DNA of 64,000 nucleotides from an uncultured Actinomycetota bacterium (GCA_964462595.1 CAYWXM010000032.1:22465-86464), one strand, 5' to 3'; shown: positions 1 to 19,141, counted from the first letter of the stretch. Notes: generated from the letters alone by a model not told the origin. Program-made: numbers and translations.

Positions 1-181
1 CCGAAAGGGGCCGGGCCTCCACGGGCGCGGCCTCCGCCCACAGTCTGGCGTGGTATTCGGGGCAGGTGGCCCAGCCCGCGGCCAGGTCCCGGCGGATATG
101 CACGGCCACCAGCTCGCGCGAGTCGAAGACGCGGATGATCCCGTCCAGGCCTATGCAGAGAGACGTTTTGCTACCTGGCAT
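1..181 (-). CDS. Partial CDS (N-terminal 60 aa; gene continues off the left edge), hypothetical protein
   Basis: Minus-strand ATG at 181-179. Translation MPGSKTSLCIGLDGIIRVFDSRELVAVHIRRDLAAGW... runs in high-GC sequence to position 1 with no stop. The AT-rich island begins immediately at its start codon. Confidence 0.4.
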   Translation of the reverse strand, partial: MPGSKTSLCIGLDGIIRVFDSRELVAVHIRRDLAAGWATCPEYHARLWAEAAPVEARPLS

Positions 182-382
182 ATCGGTGAAATACATATCT
201 GTGATGACAGAATAAAGCAGAACGCTAGAAGGGATGGTTTCGAGCAATCACCGGAATACGAGCGATTCCTCGAACATGCTTTCTTTCACCTGGGACCCGC
301 CTTAAGTAATCTATGCCGACAATCCTCGGTTAAAAGAAACTTAGAACTAAGAATTGCCAAGAAGCTAGATAAACTAGACGCA

Positions 383-721
383 ATGCTGAACCCCAAGAAT
401 ATCTACATAGACGAAGATCACTTTCAGGATGCAATGGTACAGGCTAATGATGCCTGCAGCGAACTCGAAACCATGACAAGGCAAGGGAGTAACGGAGATA
501 TTTCGGCTCGTCTCCAAGACATTAAGATACGGCTTTCAAATATATCGGATAATCCTTGTTTTTTTGCTGACCTCATTGATGGAAGAAAAGTTATGTATAT
601 GGATCACAAGGCACTTATACAAGATCTGTGCAGAAGAATCCACCTATCGTCCGATAACGGTAATTTTTCTCAAAAAATAATCCGCAAGATGGTGTCACCC
701 TATCTGAAAAAGCAGGGCTGA
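383..721 (+). CDS. Hypothetical protein (first gene of the AT-rich island); start uncertain
   Basis: ORF track 50..721. The first ~45 codons are antisense to the native partial gene, so the earliest plausible start is ATG 383 (MLNPKNIYIDEDHF...). No recognisable domain. Confidence 0.3.
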   Translation: MLNPKNIYIDEDHFQDAMVQANDACSELETMTRQGSNGDISARLQDIKIRLSNISDNPCFFADLIDGRKVMYMDHKALIQDLCRRIHLSSDNGNFSQKIIRKMVSPYLKKQG

Positions 722-855
722 GTAACATTATTCTCTTTCTTGACAGCAAATATCCCTATATCGGAAAGCATGTTCTTTATAAGAGTATTAAAAATACTTA
801 ACATTCCTCCCCCGTGTGGTCGCCAGATTGATTGGGGTCAGATTCGAGTAATCAC

Positions 856-1749
856 CTAGTACCTAACCGGAGGGATAAATACCTGCTCCCTGTGCCACCT
901 TATGTAAAAAATATCCGGGCTTAGTTCCTTGCTATAGGGCTCCCTGATGGGCTTATCCTTGAACTCTAAAAACCATTCCCTGAAATGATGATATCCATAG
1001 AGTTCTGCCGAAACGAGGAGTCGAAGATCATCATCCAAACCTATCGCTCCTCTGTCCAAGGCTTTATGGTGCAGCGTGCATAAAGCCAGCCCGTTCTGCA
1101 CAATGTCTGGGCCGCCTGCTTGATGCCACTTAATATGCGCTGCCTCCAAGCCTAAATCGATATTGCCCAATCTTAGGTCGCAACCACAGACTGCACATCT
1201 ATGCTCATATGCGCGGATAACTTCATCGCGGAATCTAGGATCTCTCGTACTTATAAACCCAGTCTTTTCCAGAGAAAGGCCAATATCATTGATTATGTCT
1301 TCATGAAGGGAGGACGGAAAGTGAGCGTTTAGCAGCGATAGAGCTATCTCGGCACGGAAGTCTTTATTCTCCTTGAGGAAGTCGTATATTTCACTGGTGA
1401 AGCCACCCGTTGCTTTCTTTTCTAGCAACTCTGATCTCACAGGATTATTACTTCCTTTCCGAAAATCAATATCGCCCTCGTGTGCAACCTCCCATATGCC
1501 ATCATTCTGCAACCTCCAGAAGGGTTGTTCTGGATGCTGCGATTTCCTTTTTGGGCCATACCTATCCAATAGTTCTGTTAATAGCCCCTCTATTTCGGCA
1601 AAAGGTGCCAATCTTTCAAGCTGTTGTTCTATTCTCGCCAAAGCTATAAGAAGAAGGAGGGGTTTATGGGGAGCCCTTTCATCGCCTCTCTTCCAGATAT
1701 TTATCTGGGAGATCTTTTCCTTCAGCTCATCCTTTGAAATAGCGTACAT
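856..1749 (-). CDS. HNH endonuclease (HNH_2-type, CAVCG...AHIKW...LCTLHH) fused to an N-terminal ~190-aa putative modified-DNA reader domain; type IV restriction component
   Basis: C-terminal HRCAVCGCDL...AAHIKWHQAGGPDIVQNGLALCTLHHKALD is a classic HNH zinc-finger nuclease motif. The N-terminal domain (APHKPLLLLIALARIEQ...YGPKRKSQHPEQPFWRLQNDGIWEV) resembles the sensor domains of ScoMcrA/SprMcrA-like enzymes. It is co-oriented immediately downstream of the McrB/McrC-like genes. Confidence 0.8.
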   Translation of the reverse strand: MYAISKDELKEKISQINIWKRGDERAPHKPLLLLIALARIEQQLERLAPFAEIEGLLTELLDRYGPKRKSQHPEQPFWRLQNDGIWEVAHEGDIDFRKGSNNPVRSELLEKKATGGFTSEIYDFLKENKDFRAEIALSLLNAHFPSSLHEDIINDIGLSLEKTGFISTRDPRFRDEVIRAYEHRCAVCGCDLRLGNIDLGLEAAHIKWHQAGGPDIVQNGLALCTLHHKALDRGAIGLDDDLRLLVSAELYGYHHFREWFLEFKDKPIREPYSKELSPDIFYIRWHREQVFIPPVRY

Positions 1750-1826
1750 GTTTCTGTCATCCTGATTCTACAAAGCAGCCTTCCCGTATAAGTTTAGCAA
1801 ACTGGCCAATTTCATAGTGACACTTC

Positions 1827-4361
1827 CTAATCTTTTTCCTTATCAATACTTGACTTAGTTCGTTCACATACCTGTTTTATTGTCTGTTCCGCATTTGGTT
1901 GATACACATCACCTGAAGAAGCATGCCTGATCATAAAACCCGCACTGCCCTTGTATTGAACGATTACATCGCCAAGCACGAAAACCGCCCTGCCCCTTGG
2001 CTCATGTCCCTTCTTTTCTGCAGGCGTTCCTGGAACGATACTGAAATCCAAACCGGCCGCTTTTAATCCATCATAAAGACGCCATTCAGGCTCAGTTTCT
2101 AAAAATAGTCCTCTCAACTCTCTTGCTCTCTGTAGAGCAAGAAGTGATGTCCATCGATTACGTGAAAAGCGCACGCCTCTCCCATTTATACCCCGATTCT
2201 CAATAGATGGAGTAAGTTCCTTTATTTCGCCAAGATAGTAGACCACCTGGAGTTCATCCTCTTTTCTTCCAAGTGCCCACGGTGTTGAGATATCCTTGCG
2301 CCTTAAAACGTCGATTCTTTCAACTGGCGCACAATAGGCAACAGCTCCAGGTTTGCGCAGCGAAGCAGGTAAATATATTGCTAACCAGCGAGTCAGGAAC
2401 TGGAGTCTCTGTGTGTGGGTAAGAGGCGTATAATAGCGGCGCTCCTTCATTATCCAGTCCAAATGCACTTGTGCATCGGCTTTAAGGGTTCCTACCAATA
2501 CCACCTCTTTTGACGCCTCCCGCCATGAACGCAACTTCTCATATGTGACATGAGGTATGGCTCGTTCCGCAATAGACCAACCGCTTTGACGTAATATGCC
2601 CCTAAGCCATTCCTCTACATGATCCATTTCAGTTGGAAGGAACGGTAATGCACCTATACCCAACCTCTCTAGCGATTTCCACAACCTACTCTTAGTAAAT
2701 TCCCTATCTCTGTCCACGTATGGAAAAAGCGCTGCTCCTTCCACTACAGTTCTATTAAATCTATCCGATCGTGTTTCGTCATCATTTGTATCCTCGAGTA
2801 TCGCATCACGATAACGATGTAATACATTTATTGCATCTAGCGGTGGGCCTGGCGCTCCAAATTGTTCCAAATATTTCGCCGAATTATTAATCCTATATTT
2901 CGCGTCAAGGATGAGCCTAACCTCAGGCCATTCGGAATCATGCAAAGCGATTACTATATCGGGTTTCTGTGGAAGTACATAGCTATCGCCGGAAAATGTA
3001 GGGTTATAGATAACCTCGATGCTTCGTGATTCATCTATAACGAAAGGAATGCGTTGCGCTCGCCCTTTTTGCAGCTGCACCTGGATTCCATTCTGTTGAA
3101 CTTTTAATATGCGCTCTACCGGCACCCTTACGCCTAACACTTGAGCCAGCATCCTTACGATAGAAAGATAACACCAGTATTCATAAAGCGTGTGAATCTG
3201 TTTTAAAGAAAGTGACAAGCCGCCCCCACCAACCCTTAAGCCCAATCGTAGTTTAATGCAAGCGTGATAAGCTTCTCGATAGCCAGGTGCATTCTGCAGC
3301 TTCAGTGACACAAACCCTGGAGCCGGAAAACCCATAGCTGCTGCTATTGGCTCAATCGCCTCAAGCCTGCTGATTTGTTCTTTAAGGTTGCTTATTTCCT
3401 CTAGTGTATGGGCCCTCCTCGCAGGAATTTCAGCCCCTTCGGCAATTTCTACGCGCCTCTTCTCCTCTTCGTATATCTCAGCCAGTCTTTTTCTTACTTG
3501 TGCCAGTTGTGCCGCTATCCAACGGTGTTCCTGTGTGTCCAGCGTTGGCAGAGCGCGGTTTTCAGGAAGCTTGCTTCGCATGGCTAATCCATTTCGTGTA
3601 AGCACTCTTTGCCCAGCTCCCTTTCCTTGCATTACATAGCGAAAGACCGCTGCATCAGGCTTTCGCAAGCGTTCAAGTCTGGTCGGCAACCTCTCTCTCG
3701 AGAGTTCCCTCTGAGGATGCTTCTCGATATAGCGTAAACCGCGTTCAAGATCGCCCATAATATTGCGAAGCAATAACAACCATTCCAACCTTGTGGGAAT
3801 CGCTTCTCTTCTCGTGAAGCCCATTTGAAATGTTGATTGAAGATATTCAAGCACAAGCGCAGTAACGATGCCCTGAAGATCTGCAAGGATTGCTTCGTAA
3901 TCGGATGTATAGTCGAGTTTGCTTGGGAATACCTCTATCTCAAAATCGAATTCAGGCCTACCCCCTATTAAGACATTAAACAGGCTCCTTCCTATTTGTC
4001 CGCCGAAGTTTATTACCCCGTATAGTGCCCTTCCTTGATCATCTTTGCTTAAGTCTCTTACGATCAAAGGATCGCGATGTCTCATCTCTATCTTTTCTGA
4101 TACTTTGCTGCGCAGAAACACCTTATATTGGGTTTCTTCAAAGAGATGTGGGCCAATCTCGCTATCGACCATCTCCGAGACCTGAGGTTGGAAATTCTCA
4201 TTAAGCCTTTTTACGCTTATTTCTGCGCCGACTCTGCGCAGCTTAACCGATAACCTGCCTGGAATATTGCTCATTTCAATCGGAAGGCTATCCGGCAGCG
4301 TGGCTAGGCTGCTCCAAATCAGCAATGATCTGTCTGTTTCTATGCGGAATAGCTCACCCAT
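1827..4361 (-). CDS. McrC-like nuclease subunit (DUF2357 N-terminal region plus DUF524-like PD-(D/E)xK core) with a ~280-aa C-terminal extension of unknown function
   Basis: PD-(D/E)xK signature PDIVIALHD...EVRLILDAKYR. It starts 6 nt after the stop of the McrB-like gene (translational coupling). 844 aa is far longer than canonical McrC. Confidence 0.75.
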   Translation of the reverse strand: MGELFRIETDRSLLIWSSLATLPDSLPIEMSNIPGRLSVKLRRVGAEISVKRLNENFQPQVSEMVDSEIGPHLFEETQYKVFLRSKVSEKIEMRHRDPLIVRDLSKDDQGRALYGVINFGGQIGRSLFNVLIGGRPEFDFEIEVFPSKLDYTSDYEAILADLQGIVTALVLEYLQSTFQMGFTRREAIPTRLEWLLLLRNIMGDLERGLRYIEKHPQRELSRERLPTRLERLRKPDAAVFRYVMQGKGAGQRVLTRNGLAMRSKLPENRALPTLDTQEHRWIAAQLAQVRKRLAEIYEEEKRRVEIAEGAEIPARRAHTLEEISNLKEQISRLEAIEPIAAAMGFPAPGFVSLKLQNAPGYREAYHACIKLRLGLRVGGGGLSLSLKQIHTLYEYWCYLSIVRMLAQVLGVRVPVERILKVQQNGIQVQLQKGRAQRIPFVIDESRSIEVIYNPTFSGDSYVLPQKPDIVIALHDSEWPEVRLILDAKYRINNSAKYLEQFGAPGPPLDAINVLHRYRDAILEDTNDDETRSDRFNRTVVEGAALFPYVDRDREFTKSRLWKSLERLGIGALPFLPTEMDHVEEWLRGILRQSGWSIAERAIPHVTYEKLRSWREASKEVVLVGTLKADAQVHLDWIMKERRYYTPLTHTQRLQFLTRWLAIYLPASLRKPGAVAYCAPVERIDVLRRKDISTPWALGRKEDELQVVYYLGEIKELTPSIENRGINGRGVRFSRNRWTSLLALQRARELRGLFLETEPEWRLYDGLKAAGLDFSIVPGTPAEKKGHEPRGRAVFVLGDVIVQYKGSAGFMIRHASSGDVYQPNAEQTIKQVCERTKSSIDKEKD

Positions 4362-4367
4362 GGTTGT

Positions 4368-6188
4368 TCACAACCAGTACGAAGTGTAACCCTCCGAAAG
4401 CAACCGTTCTAGCATCAAGCAAAGTTTAGCAGCCAACCTTGGATACTGGCTGTCGACAATCGCTGATGGTCTCCCTGTGCTGTTCCAATCATTCAAGAAC
4501 TGACGCGCTTCATCTTCAAGCTTGAACGGCTCACCACCACTAGCCCATCCAAGCAGACCAAACACTACTCGGTTTATTGCTTCGCTGCCCCCTATTATTC
4601 TAGGCAATATCTTCATTTGTAGGACGAGGTCTAGCGGATCCACCCCGTTTCCTTCCAAATCTCTAAATGAATTAATAATCTCCATGCTGTGTAACAAGAA
4701 CAGAGCAACCTCATCCCTGGTCCTGTATCCAACCTGCAATTGTGCAGGAGACAATAGCCTGTTAATCGCCTGCAGAGCGGTAATGGCACGCTCAACCTCT
4801 GATCTCTCTTTCTCCTTAAGATCCCCTAAATCTGAAAGCATGATTGCACGCGGATACCAGAACCCTATAGGCCATGTAGTTGCTCTTACAGCCTCAGATT
4901 GTTGTGAATTCTCCCATTTATCAAGATAGATTTCAGATAGCTCAATCGTGAAAGCTCGGTCCAAGACTTTACGGCTGAACCCATGTGCGCTTTCATCCAT
5001 ATTAACTGTGCCTACCAGAGCCAAATTGGGTGGAATGACAACCTCCCCCCATTCGGCCTCCTCTTCCTTCAATGTCTGCCCGAGAAGCTGAATGCTTGCA
5101 TACCCACCATTCGTTTCTGGCCGGCGGTCTTCAATTCTACTTAGAACTTCAGCGAAATACTGCTCCACTCGCGCCAAATTCATTTCATCTATAATACAGA
5201 CCCAATAACGATCTCCATTCTCCATTGCCTCACGCGCTATCTCGAGCACCGGACCTGGGCGAAAATCTCCTTGGAGGTCTGTATAACCAAGTACATCTGA
5301 ACTGTCGGTCCAATCAGGCCTGACGGAGACTAGCCTACTTACGCCTGCCGTTGCATCAGCAACGAGTCTCGGTAGCTTGGATTTTCCTGTTCCAGTTATG
5401 CCGGCAAGGATTATAAATGGCTTGGTCCGAAGAGCAGTAATATACTGAGCAACCTGCCAGGGCTCGTAAATGAACCCACGATTATTAATGTAAGCGATAA
5501 GGTCCTCCAGGGATTGTTGTTTATCGAATCCAGGTTTTAGTGGTTCAACATCCTCGTCTTTAAAGCTTTCCACCGGCACCTCCAGCTGTCTTGATTCCAG
5601 ATACCCATCGTAAACATCTAGTAAGTAGTCAATATCCGCGATGATTTCTTCGTCTCGTGGCACCGAGCCTTTTTCGTATAGCTTATATGCAACCGTTGAA
5701 TACTCGTATTCCTTCCCCAAGCCTTTCGCAGCATGCAAAGAAATGCCGAAGTCTAACAGAAAGCCATTTGCTTCAGCATCAACACAGAATTCTTGGAGCT
5801 TTCGGGCGCGTTCTCTGAGGATTCTTCTAGCTTCTATGGTTCCGTGGGTTTTCTTTAGTGTCGTCACGCCCTGATTGAATGTCAGATATACGCCTCCCAT
5901 ATCCTCTTGAAACAAGAAGACTGGATATACTCCATTCTGAGTCGTCTTTGTCTCCCTTTCGTCCAAGAACGTAATCCACGGTATACTTGCCCAATTCCCT
6001 TGCCCCACGCTCCAATTCACTCGTAATGTGGGGCGGCTCTTTACCGAAGGGAGTTCAGATAATATTTCGCCGAGCTCTCTGAACTTCATCGAAACTGGCT
6101 GGCTTGAATTGAAAGCAGAGTTACTCCTGGATTCTAAATAATTTTGAAGAATCCATACGATGTCCTCGCTAATTCCCATCTCTTGCAA
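4368..6188 (-). CDS. mcrB: McrB-family GTPase: N-terminal MrcB_N/DUF3578-type DNA-binding domain plus AAA+ (AAA_5) motor
   Basis: N-terminus NWSVGQGNWASIPWITFLD (MrcB_N-like). Walker A ILAGITGTGKSKL, Walker B CIIDEMN. Strong RBS gaggagggg 7 nt before the ATG. Confidence 0.85.
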   Translation of the reverse strand: MQEMGISEDIVWILQNYLESRSNSAFNSSQPVSMKFRELGEILSELPSVKSRPTLRVNWSVGQGNWASIPWITFLDERETKTTQNGVYPVFLFQEDMGGVYLTFNQGVTTLKKTHGTIEARRILRERARKLQEFCVDAEANGFLLDFGISLHAAKGLGKEYEYSTVAYKLYEKGSVPRDEEIIADIDYLLDVYDGYLESRQLEVPVESFKDEDVEPLKPGFDKQQSLEDLIAYINNRGFIYEPWQVAQYITALRTKPFIILAGITGTGKSKLPRLVADATAGVSRLVSVRPDWTDSSDVLGYTDLQGDFRPGPVLEIAREAMENGDRYWVCIIDEMNLARVEQYFAEVLSRIEDRRPETNGGYASIQLLGQTLKEEEAEWGEVVIPPNLALVGTVNMDESAHGFSRKVLDRAFTIELSEIYLDKWENSQQSEAVRATTWPIGFWYPRAIMLSDLGDLKEKERSEVERAITALQAINRLLSPAQLQVGYRTRDEVALFLLHSMEIINSFRDLEGNGVDPLDLVLQMKILPRIIGGSEAINRVVFGLLGWASGGEPFKLEDEARQFLNDWNSTGRPSAIVDSQYPRLAAKLCLMLERLLSEGYTSYWL

Positions 6189-6402
6189 CCCCTCCTCATG
6201 ATATTTTTCTGGCAGCCCTGCTGATTACAATTCTATCATTCCTGCAATCGCATATTGGGGAGTCATGTGGAATGTGTAGGCGCTGACCTTTTGCTTAAAG
6301 ATTTAGCAACGCGCTTGGACCATTATCAACAAGGGCTCAATCATCGCTCGATTGAAGTATTACTTGTAACCACTTCGAGGCTGATATCTCTGAGGTGCGG
6401 GA

Positions 6403-7053
6403 ATGAGAATCGCGAAACAGACTGAAGACAGGATGGTGATCAAGGGCGATACCCGCCGGATAAAGAGGAACATCATATACGGCGCGATCATTGCCGCCGT
6501 CTTCATCGTCCCCATCATCATCTTTGCCTTCACGGAAAGCCTTAATATCACCAACATCACAGATATCATAAAAGGCCTCGTCTTCCCTGTTGTCGTCCTC
6601 GTTGGGGTATCTGCCGTTCTCTACAGGGAGAGCACTCGCGTCGTTATCGACAAGGCTAAGGACCGCCTGTCGGTCAAGTTACCTCTTAACAGGATTATAT
6701 CCGGGGCTTATCCACTCAAGGCCGTGAGCGAAGTAAGGCTCAGGCATCACGGTAATCCCTATTATTTCCCTAAGTTGAGCATTTTGCTGAATAACGATGA
6801 GGAGATCATTCTGAGCAGTGACGTGATGATTAGCATGCTCAAGCCGGGCTATCTATTCAAGGCGCCGCCCCTCTACGGGCATGTTATCAGGGAGCAGCAG
6901 CTTGCGATGGATATCGCCATATTCATGGGCGTTCCTTTTCGTGAGATAAAAGGCGGAGAGGTGACCTTCGGCCTGGACCAGGCGGACAAGGATGCGACCT
7001 GTTCGGAAGAAGCTGAAGAGAAGGAAGGGAAGGTTGACGATCAGGAAGGGTAA
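6403..7053 (+). CDS. Hypothetical membrane protein (two predicted TM helices, acidic C-terminal tail)
   Basis: Hydrophobic stretches IIYGAIIAAVFIVPIIIFAF and LVFPVVVLVGVSAVLY. C-terminus SEEAEEKEGKVDDQEG. No known domain. Confidence 0.5.
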   Translation: MRIAKQTEDRMVIKGDTRRIKRNIIYGAIIAAVFIVPIIIFAFTESLNITNITDIIKGLVFPVVVLVGVSAVLYRESTRVVIDKAKDRLSVKLPLNRIISGAYPLKAVSEVRLRHHGNPYYFPKLSILLNNDEEIILSSDVMISMLKPGYLFKAPPLYGHVIREQQLAMDIAIFMGVPFREIKGGEVTFGLDQADKDATCSEEAEEKEGKVDDQEG

Positions 7054-7538
7054 CGGAGTTCTCCATGCTCTTCTGGCAGATTGGATGGAGGTGCTGCCTC
7101 TCTGAATACTCGAGATGCTCAGAGATTCCTCAGTACATGAATATAACGATGTAGAGCACCGCCAAGCCACAGATGAGATTCAGTGACGCGACAACAGCGA
7201 GAGCCAAGCGCCAGCTTCTTTCAGTTTTCCTGTTTATTGCCCATACACCAGTGAAAATCAGAAGGAACAGATTTCTTCCAGGTGATTTCTTCTGGAACCT
7301 CTCATAGTTGGGTCGAATATAGAAGAAGACTATTGGCGCCACAACAACCATTAAAAGATTGCGACAATAGCAAGTATTATTCGGTCCGCGCTCATATTGT
7401 TATTCCTAAACGTTCGAGCAGCCAGCTTTTTCTCTTTTGCTGGTCCTCGCACATATCCCAATCAGAGGATCTCCATGGGGCGGGATGGTGATCAGAAGCC
7501 TCCTTAAATAGATTGGAGTTAAAATGTCTCCTAGCCTA

Positions 7539-7949
7539 CTAGGATGTTGGTATTTGTTTTTCCGCCCATGAGAAGAATCGTTCAACCCGTTTCATTATGT
7601 CAGTCGACTCCTTTGCGGTACAGCTACGTGCCTCATATTCAACTATGCCTTTGAGCCTAAGTATCGCCTGCATCTGCCTGGCAGCCTTTGAGGCTTCCTC
7701 GGAATCTACAGTCTCCTCTAAATAGCCATGGGCTTGGTTGTGATCCTGGCCGATAAAATATTCTCCAGCGTACCTGATAGTCACTGCATTTGCCATCAGG
7801 ATAACAGCATGAACGGCATTTGATACGGCTGCATCCCATAGGCTGGCATCATGTGATAATTCCATTGCCTTGCGAAACTGAAATGCCTTTTCCTTGAACT
7901 TCTTGGCCTCAGCCTGCGTAGCTTTAGCTGTTCTCTGCTTCCTCACCAA
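7539..7949 (-). CDS. HEPN domain protein (toxin of a HEPN/MNT pair)
   Basis: R-x6-H motif (RKAMELSH). Abuts the upstream MNT gene by 2 nt. Confidence 0.7.
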   Translation of the reverse strand: MVRKQRTAKATQAEAKKFKEKAFQFRKAMELSHDASLWDAAVSNAVHAVILMANAVTIRYAGEYFIGQDHNQAHGYLEETVDSEEASKAARQMQAILRLKGIVEYEARSCTAKESTDIMKRVERFFSWAEKQIPTS

Positions 7950-7951
7950 GG

Positions 7952-8554
7952 TTATTGCTCCTTTCCATAGAGGAGCTTCCCTTCTGAAAGGATTTCTCTG
8001 GCCAATGGGTGCTCTCTTTGCTTCAATCGCTCGAGCTCATCGCAGGTATACAAGAGAATGTTCGTCCCGATGCGGTAGAGCCTGTACGCCTCCCTCTCGT
8101 TTTCTGCGATGACTTCCTCCACCTTTTCCTTGTCTGTCCCAGCCTTCAGGATCAGCGCCAGGTCGATATCGCTTGCTGGTGTATCTTCACCGCGTGCCAC
8201 ACTGCCAAAAACGTAAACGCTGATGATACACTGCTTGATGCCTTTGCCCAGAATCCCAACGAGATCATCGAGCAAGCTGGCTTCTTTCTCGAAAAGTGGC
8301 CTTAACAAGTCCTTGTAAAGAACGGTATCATCAGGTATCTCATAGACAGAGCTTCTTCCGACTGTCTTGCGTGATATTGCGCCCATATCCGCCAACGAAT
8401 CCAGTGCCCTGATACAGGTTGCATGATTCATATCGAGCTCTCTTGCTATCCCCCTGCCAGTAATAACCCTGGATGGGAATAGAACCAAGTGCCTGAGAAT
8501 GCGCACATTGTTCTTGTTGTGGAAAATATCATTTAATGGATTGTTCGTTCTCAT
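7952..8554 (-). CDS. HTH (winged-helix) plus minimal nucleotidyltransferase (MNT) domain protein; cognate antitoxin of the HEPN gene
   Basis: Motif YVFGSVARGEDTPASDIDLALIL. Start chosen at the internal ATG (MRTNNPLND...) with GGGTGA 5 nt upstream. An AT-rich promoter-like tract lies upstream. Confidence 0.7.
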   Translation of the reverse strand: MRTNNPLNDIFHNKNNVRILRHLVLFPSRVITGRGIARELDMNHATCIRALDSLADMGAISRKTVGRSSVYEIPDDTVLYKDLLRPLFEKEASLLDDLVGILGKGIKQCIISVYVFGSVARGEDTPASDIDLALILKAGTDKEKVEEVIAENEREAYRLYRIGTNILLYTCDELERLKQREHPLAREILSEGKLLYGKEQ

Positions 8555-8675
8555 CAGATCACCCGTATAATATACTATACATATGTATAAATTATTATAC
8601 ATTTACAAACTGACGTTTTCAATGACCAAGAGAGTGAATATTTGGAGCAACCACGGGGGGCGAATGGTAATCGAG

Positions 8676-8753
8676 CTAGCCTTCCTTGTCGATTATTTCC
8701 TGTATTTTGTCTCTTAACGGTGTTATATATTCAATAATATCCCTGTCTCTCAT
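8676..8753 (-). pseudogene. Truncated HepT (DUF86/HEPN) toxin remnant, 25 codons
   Basis: Minus-strand ATG overlaps the stop of the upstream MntA gene in the classic ATGA arrangement. Translation MRDRDIIEYITPLRDKIQEIIDKEG* resembles HepT N-termini but stops after 25 aa. Confidence 0.45.
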
Positions 8754-9070
8754 ACCGTTACCAACTCACTCAAGATGTTCTTACCGATATGGGGCTTCAA
8801 GGCCTTCCTGGAAACCAGGTCTACTTTTGATCCGAGAACGTCCGAAAGATGGTCTTCAAGGTCAATGAACTTGAAAAACCCAATAGGTTCGGAGAATTCA
8901 ACAAGAATATCTATATCGCTTGCCTCAACCTGCTCCCCTCTTGCAAACGAGCCGAAGATCCCTATCTCCTTGACCTTGAATTTTTCTGCTAGAAATGGCT
9001 TCTGCTCCAGCAATTTCGCTTTTATATCCTCTACTCCACCCATCACAATCTCCATCCGTGTCATACCCAT
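8750..9070 (-). CDS. Nucleotidyltransferase MntA-like antitoxin
   Basis: Motif GIFGSFARGEQVEASDIDILVEF. Exact start uncertain (several in-frame Met; TATAAT directly upstream of the first). Confidence 0.8.
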   Translation of the reverse strand: MGMTRMEIVMGGVEDIKAKLLEQKPFLAEKFKVKEIGIFGSFARGEQVEASDIDILVEFSEPIGFFKFIDLEDHLSDVLGSKVDLVSRKALKPHIGKNILSELVTV

Positions 9071-9332
9071 CTATATGGTAAATTATAGCTTATGCTGATG
9101 ACCTTGACTTAACTGGACCGCAGGAGGAGCCCTGGTCGTTTTCATTCTCAGCCCTTCGTCTTTCACCTCTTTCGTGGTCTTTATCCCCTATCATGTCCTT
9201 CAGAAGATATCTCTTCTGATCCCAACTATCAACGCGCGCAAGCCTGCATTTCCCGATTAAAACCCTGCATTGCGCGATCAGTGATAGCATATATCAGAGA
9301 GAGCCAGAACCTGGGATTTGGAGGTGTTTGAA

Positions 9333-9773
9333 GTGGGCAAAAAGAAGCCGCTGAAAGTAGACATCGGCGAGCTGACAGCGGCAATGAACTACGGCAATTA
9401 TGATATGGAGTACTACCTGGACATGGATACGGGAGAAGTCATACCCATATGCGACGATTACAGGTGCATGGAGGAATTGGCGGAGGTCTTTGAGGCAATT
9501 GAAAACGAGTCGGAACGATATTTGTACATAGATAAGGTGGAATCCTGGGATGCCTACCGTGATATGGAAAGATTCATCTTAACCGTCAAGGACGAGAGGC
9601 TGAAGAAGCTTCTTATCGTGGCTATCGACGGGAAGGGCGCTTTCTCCCGTTTCAGGAAAGTCATCTGTGAGTACCCGGAAGAAAATGACCGGTGGTTTGC
9701 CTTGAAAAGCGAAAAGGACAAGCGGAGAGCACTGGAATTCCTCGACGCAATCGGTGTCGAGCCCGTTGAATAG
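9333..9773 (+). CDS. UPF0158-like hypothetical protein
   Basis: ORF track starts at TTG 9318. GTG 9333 has GGAGGTG 6 nt upstream. The sequence KKPLKVDIGELTAAMNY... resembles UPF0158 family proteins (from memory). Confidence 0.55.
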   Translation: MGKKKPLKVDIGELTAAMNYGNYDMEYYLDMDTGEVIPICDDYRCMEELAEVFEAIENESERYLYIDKVESWDAYRDMERFILTVKDERLKKLLIVAIDGKGAFSRFRKVICEYPEENDRWFALKSEKDKRRALEFLDAIGVEPVE

Positions 9774-9822
9774 TCGTGTGGCTGCACTACCCGGCGACAC
9801 TTTTCATCCATGCTTTTGTGAT

Positions 9823-9898
9823 TGTCAGCCCCCGGGGGCTGACAGAGTTGTCTTACTTTTTATGACTTATTCAGTCATGCTATAGTAAGACTTAGTCA
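9823..9898. promoter_or_regulatory. Terminator/operator region between the UPF0158-like gene and the RHH/PIN module
   Basis: Perfect 22-bp palindrome tgtcagcccccgggggctgaca at 9823-9844. Nested inverted repeats gtcttact/agtaagac and atgact/agtcat, with repeated AGTCAT half-sites, lie immediately upstream of the antitoxin gene. Confidence 0.45.
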
Positions 9899-9919
9899 TA
9901 CGCGCGAAGGGAGGGCGTG

Positions 9920-10177
9920 ATGTCAAGGACGACAAGGACCATCACCATATCTCTTCCACCCCGCCTGCACGAGGAAGTCGAAAGGCTGGCACGTGAAGAG
10001 AACAAGACCAAGAGCGAGCTGTTCAGGGACATGATCAAGGTATACGGGGATTACCTGGACGAGAAGCGCGTGCTGCGACTCAGGCGTTTGGGCAAGGAAA
10101 GCGCAAAGAAATACGATATCCGTTCCGAGGAAGACATCGTCAAGCTGGTACACGAAGCACGAGGCATAAAGGAATAG
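9920..10177 (+). CDS. Ribbon-helix-helix (CopG/VapB-like) antitoxin
   Basis: RTITISLPPRLHEEVERLAREENKTKSELFRDMI is an RHH fold signature. Its stop lies 2 nt before the PIN gene. Confidence 0.75.
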   Translation: MSRTTRTITISLPPRLHEEVERLAREENKTKSELFRDMIKVYGDYLDEKRVLRLRRLGKESAKKYDIRSEEDIVKLVHEARGIKE

Positions 10178-10179
10178 CC

Positions 10180-10575
10180 TTGCACCGCGTGGTCTTCGAT
10201 ACCAACGTGCTTATTTCAGCCTTTATCTTCGGGGGCAATCCCGAGAGGCTTTTCGACCTTGCCCGCTTCGGGGAACTACGGCTCATCGTCTCACCCGACA
10301 TTCTCATGGAGTTCGCCTACGTCATGAAAGAGAAGTTCGCTTGGGCAGAAGACGATATTGCGGAGGCGATAAAGGCGATCGGCTACTCGTCGGAACTGGT
10401 TAGAACCACGCAGAAGCTGAAGTTGGTCATAGATGACGCCGACAATCGCATCCTCGAGTGCGCGCTTGAGGGAAACGCTGATTTCATCGTCTCCGGCGAT
10501 CATCATCTCCTCGATGTTGGGAGATTCCAGGATGTAAGGATCGTGCGGCCCAAGGCATTTCTGAGATTCCTCTAG
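10180..10575 (+). CDS. PIN-domain toxin (VapC-like, TIGR00305-like family)
   Basis: VVFDTNVLISA...IVSGDHHLL acidic PIN motifs. TTG start with AAAGGAA 5 nt upstream. Confidence 0.8.
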   Translation: MHRVVFDTNVLISAFIFGGNPERLFDLARFGELRLIVSPDILMEFAYVMKEKFAWAEDDIAEAIKAIGYSSELVRTTQKLKLVIDDADNRILECALEGNADFIVSGDHHLLDVGRFQDVRIVRPKAFLRFL

Positions 10576-10674
10576 CCGGGGCGTTATCCCTCAGGTATTC
10601 GTTCATCTACGACTTGCCCTCTATGCCAGTGCTCGCAGGCAGGATGCCTGAAAGTGGCGCGATTGTGGCTTGCC

Positions 10675-12375
10675 CTACCTCCGGGGCGGGATATCGTCCA
10701 GGCCCAGCTGGCCCCCCGGGTTCATTATGCCGTGGGGGTCGAAGTGGCGTTTGAGCGCCCGCAGGACCTCCATCTGCTCCCTGCCCAGGTGCTGCTCCAT
10801 CCAGGGAGCGAGCAGGCGGCCGATGCCGTGGTGGTGGCTGGGGGTGCCCCCGTATTTCAGTATGTTGTCAATAATGCCGTTCTGGAACTCCACGTACTCG
10901 TCCACCTCCATGCGGGCCATGAATATGAAGTAGAGGTTGGTGCCGTGGGGGTAGAAGTGCGAGGCGTGGGTCATGCAGATGGTGCCCGGCCGGCTCTTTA
11001 TATATGCGCGCACCCCCTGGTGCAGGCGGTGCAGGTTGTCCCAGGTAACGCTGGTCTCCAGGGTGTCTAAAAAGATGCCGTAGTCGTTTAAGTCCTCGCG
11101 CATGAACGGCTCGGTGTAGCGGGTGTGCTCCCACATGCGCCCGGGATAGCCAGTCATGGGAAGGGCGCCGTGCTCCCGGGCGATGCGCTTGATGGTGCGC
11201 GCCACCAGCCGGGTGTACTCCCCGTCCCCCTCCACGTTGCCCAGGCACAGGCTGCGGCTCCCGGGCTTGTAGCCCAGGCGGGCCAGGCCGGCGTCAACGA
11301 ACCCCGGGACGCCGTAGAGCTTCAGGCCCCGGTCGGTCTCCTCGGGGTCGGAGATGCGGTAGATGGCGGGCAGGCCGGACTCGTGCTGCATGATCTCGCG
11401 GCTGGCGTCCACCGCGACCTCCCAGGTGGGGAACATGAAGCTGAAATAGCGCCGGTTCTCGGGCATAAAGCGGAATATCTTCATGTTCAGCTCGACCAGG
11501 ATGCCGAAGGCTCCCTCCGAGCCCTTGAAGATGTCGTTCACCTTTGGGCCGGTGGCCGTGGCCGGGTAGTCGAGGGTCTTTATGGTCCCCACCGGGGTCA
11601 CGTATTCCTGGCTGAAGACGAGGTCGCAGGCATCGCCGTAATAGGTGGAGGCCTGGCCCGAGCCCAGGGTCACCACCCAGCCCCCCACAGTGGAGTACTC
11701 GAAAGACTGGGGAAAATGCCCGTTGGTGTAACGGAGCTTGCAGCCGAAAAGCTCGGGTGCGTTGTTGAGGGCCTCCTCGTAGGCGGGGCCGAACATGCCC
11801 GGCTGCACTCGCGCGGTCTGGTTGAGCTCGTTTATCTCCAGCAGTTTGTTCATGTGCGTGCTCATCACCAGGGTGACGCCGCCCTTGTAGGGCCGGCAGC
11901 CGAAGTTCACCGACGAGCCGGCGCTGAAGACGGTTATGGGGATGCGCTCTGAGTCGCAGTAGCGCACGATCTCGCTGACGTCTTCCTTGTCGCGCGGGTG
12001 CACCACCACGTCCGCCACCTCGCGGATGACCCCCCGGCGCAGCTCCCATATCTCCTCCGAGGTCATGCCGGTGGCGTATTTCACGCGGCTGTAATCGTCC
12101 GTGGCCACGTTCTCTGATCCCACGATGCGGGCCAGGGCCTCGATGTGCGTGGGCGCGAGCCGCGGCGGGCGGCCCAGCACCACCGGCTCGTGGCCCTCGC
12201 TCTGCTTGGCTGAGAAGTCGGCCTTGCTCATGCCGAACTCCCGCATCATCATCTCCACCCAGGCGTCACTGGGGTGCTTGAAGCGGTGCGGCTCGCCGTA
12301 TTTCACGATGGAGCGGATGGTGCCGGGCTTCGGGGGCTGCTCCGCCCAGTCCGGCCTGAAACGCTTCAGCTTCAT
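10675..12375 (-). CDS. FAD-linked oxidase (PCMH/VAO-type FAD-binding domain; alkyl-DHAP-synthase/glycolate-oxidase-like)
   Basis: FAD-binding-4 type N-terminal half and conserved C-terminal HHHGIG motif. Confidence 0.8.
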   Translation of the reverse strand: MKLKRFRPDWAEQPPKPGTIRSIVKYGEPHRFKHPSDAWVEMMMREFGMSKADFSAKQSEGHEPVVLGRPPRLAPTHIEALARIVGSENVATDDYSRVKYATGMTSEEIWELRRGVIREVADVVVHPRDKEDVSEIVRYCDSERIPITVFSAGSSVNFGCRPYKGGVTLVMSTHMNKLLEINELNQTARVQPGMFGPAYEEALNNAPELFGCKLRYTNGHFPQSFEYSTVGGWVVTLGSGQASTYYGDACDLVFSQEYVTPVGTIKTLDYPATATGPKVNDIFKGSEGAFGILVELNMKIFRFMPENRRYFSFMFPTWEVAVDASREIMQHESGLPAIYRISDPEETDRGLKLYGVPGFVDAGLARLGYKPGSRSLCLGNVEGDGEYTRLVARTIKRIAREHGALPMTGYPGRMWEHTRYTEPFMREDLNDYGIFLDTLETSVTWDNLHRLHQGVRAYIKSRPGTICMTHASHFYPHGTNLYFIFMARMEVDEYVEFQNGIIDNILKYGGTPSHHHGIGRLLAPWMEQHLGREQMEVLRALKRHFDPHGIMNPGGQLGLDDIPPRR

Positions 12376-12450
12376 GGGAGGTCCTTTCCTGCAAGCAACC
12401 GGTATTTCCCGTATGAATCCTTACCCATATACTCTAACACAGTAAGCCGG

Positions 12451-12475
12451 GGGGTCAGGCCCGGAAATCGGCCAC
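12451..12475 (+). repeat. 25-bp repeat GGGGTCAGGCCCGGAAATCGGCCAC, copy 1
   Basis: Identical copy at 13646-13670. Related inverted copies in the tandem repeat at 39011-39098. Partial match at ~22775-22795. Confidence 0.85.
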
Positions 12476-12731
12476 GCTGATACGGCGTCCGTGCAGGGCG
12501 GCCTGGTAAAGTAACCGGGATTTCTGTGCGTCCAACTCCGCCAACGACTGGCTGGGCGGCAAGACCATCTTTCTCCCGGAAGGAGGTACCCTCACGCCGG
12601 CATGTGAAAAGAGTGAGCGCGGTGAAGACTTGCGTTGATGTGAATCGCTCCATGTTCGCATTTATGCGAAATTGGAAACGGCCGATACTACACGGGAACG
12701 GTCGATTGCCCGGAAGATGAAGGAGAAGAGG

Positions 12732-19112: not shown

Positions 19113-19141
19113 CTTTCCTTCTCCCTTTCCTCGCTAGCCGC

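Follow-up and report, generated by a model that had tools for sequence, protein, structure and literature searches.

The low-GC DNA at positions 158–10,657 of the analyzed 64-kb stretch (the window) is the right-hand two-thirds of a hypervariable accessory tract of approximately 17 kb, carried by an uncultured Actinomycetota host of about 63% GC. Its gene cluster is genuine but ordinary: a low-GC group of anti-phage restriction and toxin–antitoxin genes in a GC-rich actinomycetotal genome. We propose that the tract, which is scarred by insertion sequences (IS) and begins where the gene for a native FAD-linked oxidase ends, was probably built stepwise and not acquired in a single insertion.

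The abrupt compositional block of the original prediction is real. Mean GC is 0.466 ± 0.023 over positions 200–10,200 (1-kb windows, n = 10) and 0.625 ± 0.021 over the remaining 11–64 kb (1-kb windows, n = 53), where the minimum native window has 0.572; the two differ by about 16 GC points (z ≈ −7.5). The GC content at third codon positions (GC3) ranges from 0.42 to 0.70 in the block genes, against 0.83–0.94 in the flanking native genes, and falls into three strata (0.42–0.48, 0.49–0.55, and 0.65–0.70). However, the block is not a discrete 10.4-kb unit, as the window edge cuts through the tract. In contig L001, which extends the window leftward, the GC-rich patch that had been taken for a return to host composition is only about 650 bp long and is followed by about 6 kb more of low-GC DNA outside the window. 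This portion encodes TetR, HydA, HydB, and AcxG (hydantoinase/acetone-carboxylase-like); the GC3 of the TetR gene is 0.41, giving a range of 0.41–0.70 for the whole tract. The tract runs from the FAD-oxidase stop codon (10,657–10,677) to a BKACE gene of native GC outside the window, its far-left border being the 23-bp spacer ahead of that gene (L001 18190–18214).

A metagenome assembly chimera, with the DNA of a low-GC organism joined to a high-GC contig, would account for such a composition difference in a metagenomic source, yet it is extremely improbable. Six contigs, which come from different samples and were built with different assemblers (JGI 3300077522, 3300001335, and 3300001533; Logan SRR2986055, SRR1179181, and SRR1179191), carry the same sequence with both junctions at 99.97–100% identity, and the junctions are therefore not assembly artefacts. 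The independent relative L119 also links toxin–antitoxin cassettes to the FAD-oxidase gene.

According to the original prediction, the island had entered a native gene precisely at its start codon. A minus-strand ATG at 181–179 does open a frame into GC-rich DNA, and the GC shift lies within about 30 bp of it. Nevertheless, a discrete 10.4-kb defense island inserted at this codon is very improbable. The GC-rich ORF is not a native gene but a 3′ piece of istA from an IS21-family element (1–154, minus strand), comprising the last ~57 IstA codons and continuing past the left edge of the window, with an IstB head behind it. The 1–154 ORF shows 48% identity to IstA C-terminal ends in more than 1600 enterobacterial plasmids (tblastn, E = 1e-10). 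The 89-aa ORF at the left edge is 46% identical over 63 aa to contig L073 (tblastn, E = 1.6e-15), where the match is the last 54 IstA residues and an overlapping IstB follows immediately. The next ORF, outside the window, resembles IstB N-terminal positions 1–54 (NCBIfam, E = 9e-4), and beyond it lies an ISNCY transposase stub, for a total of about 650 bp of IS debris. The resumption of low GC 650 bp further left also argues against insertion at the ATG.

The junction itself can be placed at 149–157, where minus-strand IstA homology stops and the homology of a truncated plus-strand GHKL-family ORF starts. The IstA-like codons ('IGLDGIIRVFD...') extend to 152–154, the GHKL-family consensus 'ERRFATWHIGEIH' begins at codon 158–160, and at this point GC drops from 0.69 to 0.44. 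As read from the sequence, 149–157 appears to be a recombination or deletion scar. IS21-family elements are typically about 2–2.5 kb long. The IS21 remnant passes from the IstA C-terminal tail directly to the IstB N-terminus, as at an intact istA/istB junction, but only the last ~57 IstA and first ~55 IstB residues are present; the 350–400 bp or so that are left have neither ends nor catalytic domains. No second IS21 copy was found within the 64-kb window. Neither an IS end nor a target-site duplication could be identified, and we therefore infer an IS-mediated step from the truncations.

The ORF to the right of the junction (158–721, plus strand; GC3 0.43) is a 5′-truncated pseudogene of the GHKL (HATPase_c_3)-type ATPase family, of which the C-terminal ~188 residues remain. 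Bases 158–181 already belong to this foreign ORF: the family homology opens at 'ERRFATWH', a consensus that codons 158–181 fit on the plus strand, in further conflict with an insertion at the ATG. The ATG at 181–179 lies antisense within the truncated gene and is a fortuitous start codon. Seven homologues with 30–35% identity all carry at least 45 additional conserved N-terminal residues ('MRGIRVRxGNIEVGDE...') that are missing here. In contig L132, the homologue comes after and overlaps a HATPase_c_3 ORF, and a DndB-family gene adjoins.

The gene calls of the original prediction proved essentially right in Pfam, NCBIfam, and PADLOC searches, covering the McrB- and McrC-like proteins, the SBD-HNH enzyme, the HEPN protein with its winged-helix (wHTH) nucleotidyltransferase, MntA, and the RHH-PIN pair. 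The SBD-HNH gene (856–1749, minus strand) encodes a type IV restriction endonuclease predicted to be phosphorothioated-DNA-dependent (ScoMcrA/SprMcrA-like). It scores 359.6 bits against NCBIfam NF045808 ('phosphorothioated DNA-binding restriction endonuclease'; cut-off 180), carries Pfam HNH_2 (1.2e-10) and the precomputed PF26340 DNA-SBD_ScoMcrA domain, and matches HNH and mREase_IV in PADLOC. Residues 14–159 match the sulfur-binding domains of ScoMcrA (5ZMM/5ZMO) and SprMcrA (7CC9) by sequence. The N-terminal sulfur-binding and C-terminal HNH domains are shared with both enzymes, but the 297-aa protein is of the short SBD-HNH type and lacks the SRA domain present in ScoMcrA (PMC6224610, PMC7470945). 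It would cleave phosphorothioated DNA.

The SBD-HNH gene is separate from the McrBC operon, lying 77 bp downstream of it. The McrB-like protein (4368–6188, minus strand) combines an EcoKMcrB-type N-terminal DNA-binding (ADAM/MrcB_N) domain with an AAA+ GTPase (Pfam MrcB_N 2.2e-44, AAA_5; PADLOC PDC-M26A, 2.7e-42). Both domains match E. coli McrB in a PDB sequence search, the N-domain through 3SSC and 8IK4. Its Walker A (GITGTGKS), Walker B (IIDEMN), and signature (N-M-D-E, aligned to the 'NTAD' of E. coli McrB) motifs place it in the branch with the NxD signature. The McrC-like nuclease subunit (1827–4361, minus strand; 844 aa) is encoded directly downstream, after a 6-bp gap, and contains DUF2357 (3.6e-48) and PDDEXK_7 (4.3e-39). 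Its domain order is an Ig-like N-terminal β-sandwich, DUF2357 with a coiled-coil hairpin, a PD-(D/E)xK nuclease with an intact catalytic motif ('PD...LDAKY'), and a C-terminal PUA-like (YTH/EVE/ASCH-like) domain. AF2 models have pLDDT values of 79.5 and 79.3. The top Foldseek match of the whole protein is the YdjA-YdiS model 9a5m, and its C-terminal domain matches 2p5d, YTHDF2 (probability 0.99), VcaM4I, ASCH, and the S. marinus McrB N-domain. The McrC-like protein has 485 homologues at full length. The pair thus has the sequence hallmarks of McrBC: AAA+ motifs, an N-terminal DNA-binding domain, and McrC DUF2357 plus PD-(D/E)xK downstream.

The closest counterparts are the NxD-branch McrBC systems outside the CoCoNuTs (Bell et al. 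2024, PMC11090510). They share an McrB made of ADAM/MrcB_N and an AAA+ GTPase with N-x-D followed by E; an McrC in which DUF2357 and PD-DxK are accompanied by further fused domains, among them an Ig-like one at the N-terminus, a coiled-coil insert, and one resembling the EVE superfamily; and a single operon with McrB upstream. Unlike those systems, no methyltransferase or two-component genes adjoin here. Assignment to the CoCoNuT subclass itself was rejected, as McrB has an ADAM domain and not a long coiled-coil at its N-terminus and there is no overlapping nuclease. Only the NxD signature is shared with CoCoNuTs (PMC11090510); the operon has no tandem nuclease, HEPN or otherwise, joined to it by fusion or overlap, and its own nuclease motif is intact. 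NxD-type McrB GTPases are so far without biochemical characterization (PMC11090510), and the E. coli-type ADAM domain, NxD GTPase, and PUA-like McrC tail form a combination not previously characterized. We suggest that hexamers of the McrB-like ADAM-NxD GTPase, stimulated by the McrC-like subunit, may cleave base-modified invading DNA jointly with it. The McrB–McrC pair also occurs in other Actinobacteria MAG defense islands (65–74% aa identity), again with a lower GC than the host, and in the unrelated contig L134, McrC (78% aa) is linked to SBD-HNH (83% aa).

The toxin–antitoxin genes lie on the other side of the McrB-like gene. A HEPN-domain protein of the PF05168 type (7539–7949, minus strand; Pfam HEPN 4.1e-6) is the downstream partner, after a 2-bp gap, of a winged-helix protein with a minimal nucleotidyltransferase (7952–8602, minus strand; Pfam Polbeta, NTP_transf_2, and weak MarR_2; PADLOC PDC-M05A, 2.8e-23), the true start of which is likely at 8554 ('MRTNNPL'). 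The 'GSVARGEDTPASDIDL' motif is read directly in the sequence of the latter, and the adjacent GSx10DxD nucleotidyltransferase and HEPN genes qualify as a HEPN-MNT pair. By sequence inspection, no clear Rx4-6H motif is present in the expected C-terminal helix of the HEPN protein; PF05168-type HEPN domains frequently lack it. The pair differs from known HEPN-MNT and HepT-MntA pairs in that its HEPN domain is of the PF05168 type and not DUF86, and the partner has an extra winged-helix domain. An intact, orphan antitoxin-like MntA-type minimal nucleotidyltransferase (8750–9070, minus strand; Pfam NTP_transf_2 2.1e-16, Polbeta 7.6e-15; PADLOC PDC-S09, 1.3e-29) follows. A HepT-MntA (type VII) pair was rejected for this gene: DUF86 HepT with Rx4HxY is absent, and mntA, in contrast to its paired relatives, has no intact toxin but just a 25-codon ORF stub after it (8676–8753, minus strand; 'MRDRDIIEYITPLRDKIQEIIDKEG' followed by a stop in six-frame translation), the ATG of which overlaps the mntA stop (ATGA). 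What the original prediction took for a decayed HepT remnant is this stub, which occupies the slot expected for a hepT toxin gene; Pfam gives no match for so short a peptide, and it is possibly, though unproven, a HepT remnant. An RHH antitoxin (9917–10177; Pfam RHH_1 1.7e-7) and a PIN_3 toxin (10180–10575; 3.1e-22, profile positions 1–115 of 115), both on the plus strand with GC3 of 0.69–0.70, are separated by 2 bp and show the VapBC-like order, antitoxin upstream. As in known HEPN-MNT, HepT-MntA, and VapBC-like pairs, the genes are small neighbors with 2-bp gaps, and the nucleotidyltransferase GSxxRG...DxD is present. These modules may help to stabilize the region or may mediate abortive infection.

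The cargo is not exclusively of the defense type, as had been claimed, since no defense role could be assigned to the UPF0158 gene or to either of two membrane ORFs. A predicted membrane protein of 216 aa (6403–7053, plus strand) is divergent from McrB, has a GC3 of 0.67 unlike the adjacent McrBC genes, and has no above-threshold match in Pfam, NCBIfam, or PADLOC. The UPF0158-family gene (9318–9773, plus strand; Pfam UPF0158 1.4e-18) has no PADLOC match and is missing from the matching cassette array of L119. In L007, the closest relative, the FAD-oxidase stop codon is immediately followed, on the same strand, by an ORF of 88 aa, to which a small membrane protein of 73 aa in the window (7130–7351, minus strand) is 44% identical (E = 1e-22). 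Judging from this position, the 73-aa gene is probably an old resident of the locus.

The original prediction located the right edge correctly, but this edge is the end, at the stop codon, of the native gene for the FAD-linked oxidase, and the rise in GC is gradual, starting at about 9,300. This flank marker outside the island (10675–12375, minus strand; Pfam FAD_binding_4 and FAD-oxidase_C; GC3 0.91) has 87–91% aa identity in uncultured Actinomycetota MAGs. Nucleotide homology ends at window positions 10674–10676 for L074, L007, and L008 and at 10657 for L009, which puts the right-hand limit of the variable region at 10657–10677. Three near relatives, L008, L074, and L009, have unrelated genes of native composition after the FAD-oxidase stop codon and none of the genes of the tract there, in support of a compositionally foreign defense cluster. 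An alignment of the relatives' downstream sequences revealed no common motif past the stop codon. No relative with synteny on both flanks was found; far-side synteny is not conserved in the relatives, and therefore no empty site can be reconstructed.

By the original prediction's own standard, related genomes with these genes at or near this locus would count against it, and L119 is in part such a genome, for the toxin–antitoxin genes only. Window positions 9881–10573 are 84% identical in nucleotides to L119 2714–3406 (RHH 93% aa, PIN 75% aa). The wHTH-to-HEPN segment has 75–77% nucleotide identity, and the HEPN protein is 87% identical (aa) to the HEPN part of an L119 fusion protein. The L119 cassettes (GC3 0.67–0.80) sit, without McrBC or HNH genes, between an isochorismatase-family gene (88.7% nucleotide identity to window 17670–19141) and the FAD-oxidase start (87.8%). 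They are thus upstream of the FAD oxidase and those of the window downstream, on the opposite side, so the shared cassettes could reflect within-clade exchange and not common ancestry at the locus.

A single arrival of the ~17-kb island, from the FAD-oxidase stop to the BKACE start, with IS21/ISNCY insertion and local decay afterwards, would explain why low GC is unbroken except for the 650-bp IS patch, why both outer borders are sharp, and why the GC3 of TetR is so close to the 0.42–0.48 of the McrBC block. We nevertheless regard it as unlikely. The spread of GC3 within the tract, the presence in L119 of RHH-PIN and wHTH/HEPN beside the same FAD oxidase without McrBC/HNH, the L007 positional homologue of the 73-aa gene, and the several truncated genes argue against one insertion, and McrBC and HNH form their own block elsewhere, without toxin–antitoxin genes. 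We therefore favor stepwise assembly. The older layer would comprise the 73-aa membrane gene and the RHH-PIN and wHTH-nucleotidyltransferase/HEPN cassettes, which have intermediate GC3 (0.49–0.70) and homologues beside the same FAD oxidase in relatives. MntA, with the possible hepT stub, and UPF0158 would form another layer, lying between these cassettes. The most foreign layer (GC3 0.42–0.48) would be the McrB–McrC and SBD-HNH type IV restriction block together with the GHKL-ATPase gene. An IS21-family element may later have rearranged or deleted DNA at 149–157, cutting off the GHKL gene, and since shrunk to the istA-tail/istB-head fragment, abutted by the ISNCY stub. Past this debris lies the further low-GC TetR and hydantoinase/acetone-carboxylase-like cassette. 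Defense and toxin–antitoxin genes often have a GC below that of their host, which makes differences in GC3 an imperfect clock, and the order of events was derived from GC3 and from two contigs of limited length: L119, with 5 kb in all, and L007, with 1.4 kb past the FAD oxidase.

The absence of an integrase, tRNA, and flanking direct repeat, as originally reported, held in ORF domain searches, with ARAGORN, and in a repeat search. No integrase or recombinase domain is present in any ORF of 1–10,620, where the only transposition genes are the IS21/ISNCY fragments at or past the left edge; the 64-kb window contains no tRNA or tmRNA; no flanking direct or inverted repeats exceed chance, with no repeat pairing the two edges; and Rfam gives no match. 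Of the features of an integrase-mediated island, the tract shows deviant composition and lacks the integrase, tRNA/tmRNA, and att repeats. Conversely, it holds the two or more independent systems expected of a defense island, a concept reportedly set out by Makarova and co-workers in 2011, with the McrBC-like pair, SBD-HNH, wHTH-nucleotidyltransferase/HEPN, MntA, and RHH-PIN within 10 kb. The hsd-mrr-mcrBC region of E. coli K-12 is a hypervariable example of the 'immigration control' type. As in islands of this type, restriction and toxin–antitoxin modules share one chromosomal site with a GC under that of the host, without integrase, tRNA, or direct repeat, and the content varies among near relatives while the flank stays fixed. 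The tract differs from them in its added metabolic cassette (TetR and hydantoinase/acetone-carboxylase-like genes), in its IS21/ISNCY scars and truncated genes, and in its host, an uncultured Actinomycetota lineage.

The region is a mosaic, partly decayed tract of defence and accessory genes at a hypervariable site. The original prediction of an AT-rich defence island was correct with respect to composition: ten 1-kb windows across 200-10,200 have a mean GC of 0.466 (sd 0.023), compared with 0.625 (sd 0.021, minimum 0.572) across 53 windows spanning 11-64 kb, and the low-GC block departs from the rest of the window by z≈-7.5 in 1-kb GC. The GC content at the third codon position (GC3) divides the genes more clearly than 1-kb GC, with values of 0.91 for the native FAD-linked oxidase and 0.84 for a native neighbour gene. 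Within the block, GC3 is 0.42 for the McrC-like gene, 0.43 for a GHKL-family remnant, 0.47 for the McrB-like gene, 0.48 for the SBD-HNH gene, 0.49 for HEPN, 0.53 for MntA, 0.54 for a 73-aa ORF, 0.55 for the wHTH-nucleotidyltransferase, 0.65 for UPF0158, 0.67 for a 216-aa membrane ORF, 0.69 for RHH and 0.70 for PIN. This spread indicates that the block is foreign-looking yet layered in composition. An assembly artefact is ruled out, since six contigs, which differ in sample and assembler, repeat the block sequence at 99.97-100% identity; the source samples include JGI 3300077522, 3300001335 and 3300001533.

The parent contig was reached by an exact-protein look-up, and a longer copy of the region (L001), which continues leftward beyond the window, was taken from a 97.5-kb JGI contig. 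L001 is reversed, its coordinates being 11,750 minus those of the window. The GC-rich patch that includes window positions 1-160 is only about 650 bp long (L001 ~11,590-12,250), and to its left the GC content returns to 0.35-0.50. The low-GC genes there are a TetR gene (L001 12523-13245, GC3 0.41), hydantoinase A and B-like genes (L001 13369-17722, GC3 0.53-0.57) and an acetone-carboxylase-gamma-like gene (L001 17738-18190, GC3 0.53), followed by a BKACE gene with a GC3 of 0.94. The change from 0.53 to 0.94 takes place over a 23-bp same-strand spacer (L001 18190-18214), some 6.4 kb to the left of where the window starts. Because the low-GC genes continue past the insertion-sequence debris to BKACE, the tract measures about 17 kb and the window holds its right-hand two-thirds. 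A second hydantoinase A, of native GC and 45% identical to the low-GC one, lies beyond BKACE, and the TetR-HydA-HydB-AcxG group looks like a xenologous cassette parked beside a native paralogous cluster.

The GC-rich patch consists of the remains of two insertion sequences. The minus-strand ORF at the left edge, which ends in '...VPEYHARLWAEAAPVEARPLSVYEEVSC' followed by its stop, shares 48% identity (E 1e-10) with the very C-terminal end of IS21-family IstA on more than 1600 plasmids; its counterpart in a plasmid locus with IS21 (L073) ends in '...VPEYHATLWQQVSQVEHRPLSAYEELL' and is overlapped by IstB. The following L001 ORF (76 aa) corresponds to IstB profile positions 1-54 (NCBIfam, E 9e-4) and to positions 3-46 of Pfam IstB_IS21, and an 82-aa ORF on the opposite strand resembles the first 46 residues of ISNCY-family transposases. 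These identities came from protein-level searches; blastn against plasmids gave no DNA-level match for the fragment, and the window contains no second copy of it.

On the other side of the junction, the plus-strand ORF ending at 721 belongs to a small uncharacterised family with the conserved core 'FTERRFATWHIGEIH...NARRDGFEQ'. The window counterpart, 'AYAERRFATWHIGEIH', places the start of the family homology at codon 158-160. All seven homologues have at least 45 additional conserved N-terminal residues, which are missing in the window, so that 158-721 is a 5'-truncated pseudogene. In one contig (L132), the homologue continues upstream into a HATPase_c_3 (GHKL) ORF next to a DndB-family gene. 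This full-length relative (L132 792-6175, ENA ERZ25039602) is split by a frameshift in that assembly and adjoins a 624-aa DndB-family gene and radical-SAM fragments, a neighbourhood that hints at a DNA-modification-linked system. The left junction lies at 149-157. A truncated GHKL gene abuts a truncated istA here, which indicates that an IS-associated deletion or rearrangement has occurred at this point at least once. The proposed insertion exactly at the start codon of a native gene is refuted: the GC-rich ORF is the IS21 IstA tail, and the ATG at 181-179 runs antisense to foreign coding sequence. The seeming start-codon insertion is a product of the window edge and of an IS remnant with a fortuitously high GC content. 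Overall, the composition and annotation in the original prediction stand, and its boundary and insertion do not.

The gene calls within the window agree with domain, NCBIfam and PADLOC matches. On the minus strand are an HNH_2 protein (SBD-HNH, 856-1749), a DUF2357 and PDDEXK_7 protein (McrC-like, 1827-4361), a protein with the Pfam domains MrcB_N and AAA_5 (McrB-like, 4368-6188), 6 bp upstream of the McrC-like gene, HEPN (7539-7949), a wHTH-nucleotidyltransferase 2 bp from it (7952-8602) and MntA (8750-9070). UPF0158 (9318-9773) is on the plus strand and is followed by RHH (9917-10177) and PIN_3 (10180-10575). PADLOC models matched the HNH protein (HNH/mREase_IV), McrB (PDC-M26A), the wHTH-nucleotidyltransferase (PDC-M05A) and MntA (PDC-S09). 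The cargo had been described as purely defensive; this holds for the restriction and toxin-antitoxin genes, but the membrane ORFs at 6403-7053 and 7130-7351 and UPF0158 carry no defence assignment. The suggested decayed HepT corresponds to a stub of 25 codons, its ATG overlapping the stop codon of mntA; no Pfam match confirms its identity. As expected from the first inspection, the tRNA scan of the window found no tRNA, and no repeats pairing the two island edges were found. An Rfam scan of 1-12,500 at E≤1 returned no family, and promoter and terminator counts were at or below the shuffled expectation.

The right edge was compared with relatives carrying the same FAD oxidase. MAGs of uncultured Actinomycetota encode it at 87-91% amino-acid identity, and a Candidatus Geothermincolia MAG at 80%. 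L074 (MTKY01), L007 (CAYPZH01) and L008 (JAQVFR01) lose nucleotide homology to the window at 10,674-10,676, and L009 loses it at 10,657; in all four the break is at the FAD-oxidase stop codon or just beyond it, and no common motif follows. Native-GC genes, a HerA-like ATPase among them, lie downstream in L008 and L074; in L009 the corresponding DNA holds a series of unrelated ORFs, again of native GC. In L007, whose FAD oxidase is 91% identical (aa), the stop codon is followed directly, on the same strand, by an 88-aa membrane ORF with 44% identity (E 1e-22) to window 7130-7351, and then by a TetR gene. The latter is not an orthologue of the L001 TetR, the similarity being that of a generic HTH (32% over 87 aa). 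Since each relative differs downstream of the FAD oxidase, the site is hypervariable. An empty-site search with the FAD oxidase as query covered 185,579 species genomes and JGI metagenomes. It recovered close relatives, each with a different downstream synteny, and no empty site could be reconstructed. BKACE and hydantoinase genes never occurred near the FAD oxidase in these collections. L007 also has its own low-GC patch (9000-9600, GC 0.42-0.51) just upstream of the FAD-oxidase start, so that within the clade AT-rich DNA is drawn to either side of the gene.

The toxin-antitoxin end of the tract reappears in a 5-kb metagenome contig (L119, MTKY01048861.1). It carries, in order, an isochorismatase-family gene (88.7% nt to window 17670-19141), a rubrerythrin gene, PIN and RHH (84% nt to window 9881-10573), an in-frame wHTH~HEPN fusion (75-77% nt to window 8271-8604 and 7548-7910) and the FAD-oxidase start (87.8% nt). 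The fusion (L119 3514-4218) is a 234-aa protein in which the winged-helix N-terminus is joined to HEPN and the nucleotidyltransferase domain is deleted. The cassettes, with a GC3 of 0.67-0.80, keep the order and orientation seen in the window, yet they lie upstream of the FAD oxidase rather than downstream, and MntA and UPF0158 (window 8605-9880) are missing from the array. The presence of RHH-PIN and wHTH~HEPN in L119 indicates that this end belongs to the accessory pool of the clade and is not a unique recent import.

The restriction block has a different set of relatives. The HNH protein matches NCBIfam NF045808, 'phosphorothioated DNA-binding restriction endonuclease', with 359.6 bits (cut-off 180), and over residues 14-159 it matches the sulfur-binding domains whose structures were solved for ScoMcrA and SprMcrA (PMC6224610, PMC7470945). 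The McrC-like protein has 485 homologues, which among the matches listed show near full-length coverage and are mostly about 800-850 aa long. The closest of known taxonomic origin (65-66% aa) are in Actinobacteria MAG contigs, where the same two-gene unit, made up of McrB (603 aa) and McrC (~840 aa), sits within other defence islands and is likewise lower in GC than the host. After the closest overall (78% aa, contig L134) come a BglII-like gene and then an SBD-HNH 83% identical to that of the window, a linkage indicating that McrBC and SBD-HNH co-travel and that their pairing is recurrent. The intervening BglII-like endonuclease gene is of very low GC (L134 54-4290, Logan SRR17165148). A plasmid or phage vehicle was considered and dropped: the collections searched held no close copy of the McrC-like gene, with best identities of 35% (plasmid) and 26% (phage).

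McrB matches E. coli McrB in the 5mC-binding N-domain and the AAA+ domain, with the motifs GITGTGKS, IIDEMN and N-M-D-E. The last (residues 396-399, window 5001-5012, minus strand) is the shortened NxD signature, compared with NxxD in E. coli McrB. According to Bell et al. (PMC11090510), NxD marks a large branch of McrBC, biochemically still uncharacterised, in which the McrC partners carry elaborate decorations. The shared NxD motif brought CoCoNuT systems into consideration, but membership is rejected on architecture: the McrB lacks a coiled-coil, no tandem nuclease accompanies it, and the nuclease motif has been retained.

The AF2 model of McrC (pLDDT 79.5) has four parts: an Ig-like N-terminal sandwich (~145 residues), a helical DUF2357 with a coiled-coil hairpin (277-334), a PD-DxK core with an intact PD...DAK motif, and an extra C-terminal region (residues ~620-844, window 1830-2500, minus strand) conserved in this McrC family. 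The best PDB match of the whole model is a YdjA-YdiS model; these two proteins are the McrBC-like subunits of BsuMI. Modelled alone (pLDDT 79.3), the C-terminal region matches only PUA-like modified-base readers, with weak E-values and a coherent set: MJECL36 (2p5d; E 3.5e-3, at full match probability), the YTH domains of YTHDF2 (near-certain by the same measure), VcaM4I, ASCH, PH1033 and the S. marinus McrB N-domain. We thus predict a PUA-like (YTH/EVE/ASCH-like) fold for this extension, the PUA-like domain itself corresponding to residues 620-770.

Following established McrBC biology (PMC6624300, PMC7680126), McrB hexamers would bind modified DNA via the ADAM domain, GTP hydrolysis would be stimulated by the DUF2357 stalk of McrC, and the DNA would then be cut by the PD-DxK domains. 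The PUA-like tail may supply a second modified-base reader. The SBD-HNH enzyme would recognise phosphorothioate sulfur and nick or cleave nearby DNA, and the toxin-antitoxin modules would probably serve region stabilisation or abortive infection.

These observations could be combined in a joint reading, which we offer tentatively and consider rather unlikely. The 3' end of the FAD-oxidase gene would be a lineage-specific, integrase-independent hotspot that shuffles small defence and toxin-antitoxin cassettes, even across the anchor gene (L119 versus the window); McrB (ADAM, NxD), McrC (PUA-like tail) and SBD-HNH would form a co-travelling dual type IV cassette reading both base and backbone phosphorothioate modification; and the 23-bp GC3 switch by BKACE would mark a xenologous hydantoinase/acetone-carboxylase cassette beside its native paralogue.

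Nothing in the locus would surprise a defence-system specialist, and its main value is one of correction and caution. It contributes one more defence region without an integrase, probably built up in steps, from a poorly studied Actinomycetota lineage. It also presents an intact NxD-branch McrBC, with an E. coli-type ADAM on McrB, a predicted PUA-like reader on McrC and a linked phosphorothioate-dependent HNH enzyme, and these are reasonable candidates for work on NxD GTPases or on the joint sensing of base and backbone modifications.

A defence island in an Actinobacteria MAG (L128 1-12526, GCA_014360645.1) also has the N-M-D-E motif, in each of its three McrB-like genes, which encode an EVE-fused, an unfused and an ADAM-fused GTPase. 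These stand in a row with two McrC-like genes, and the island includes an MmeI/Eco57I-like enzyme.
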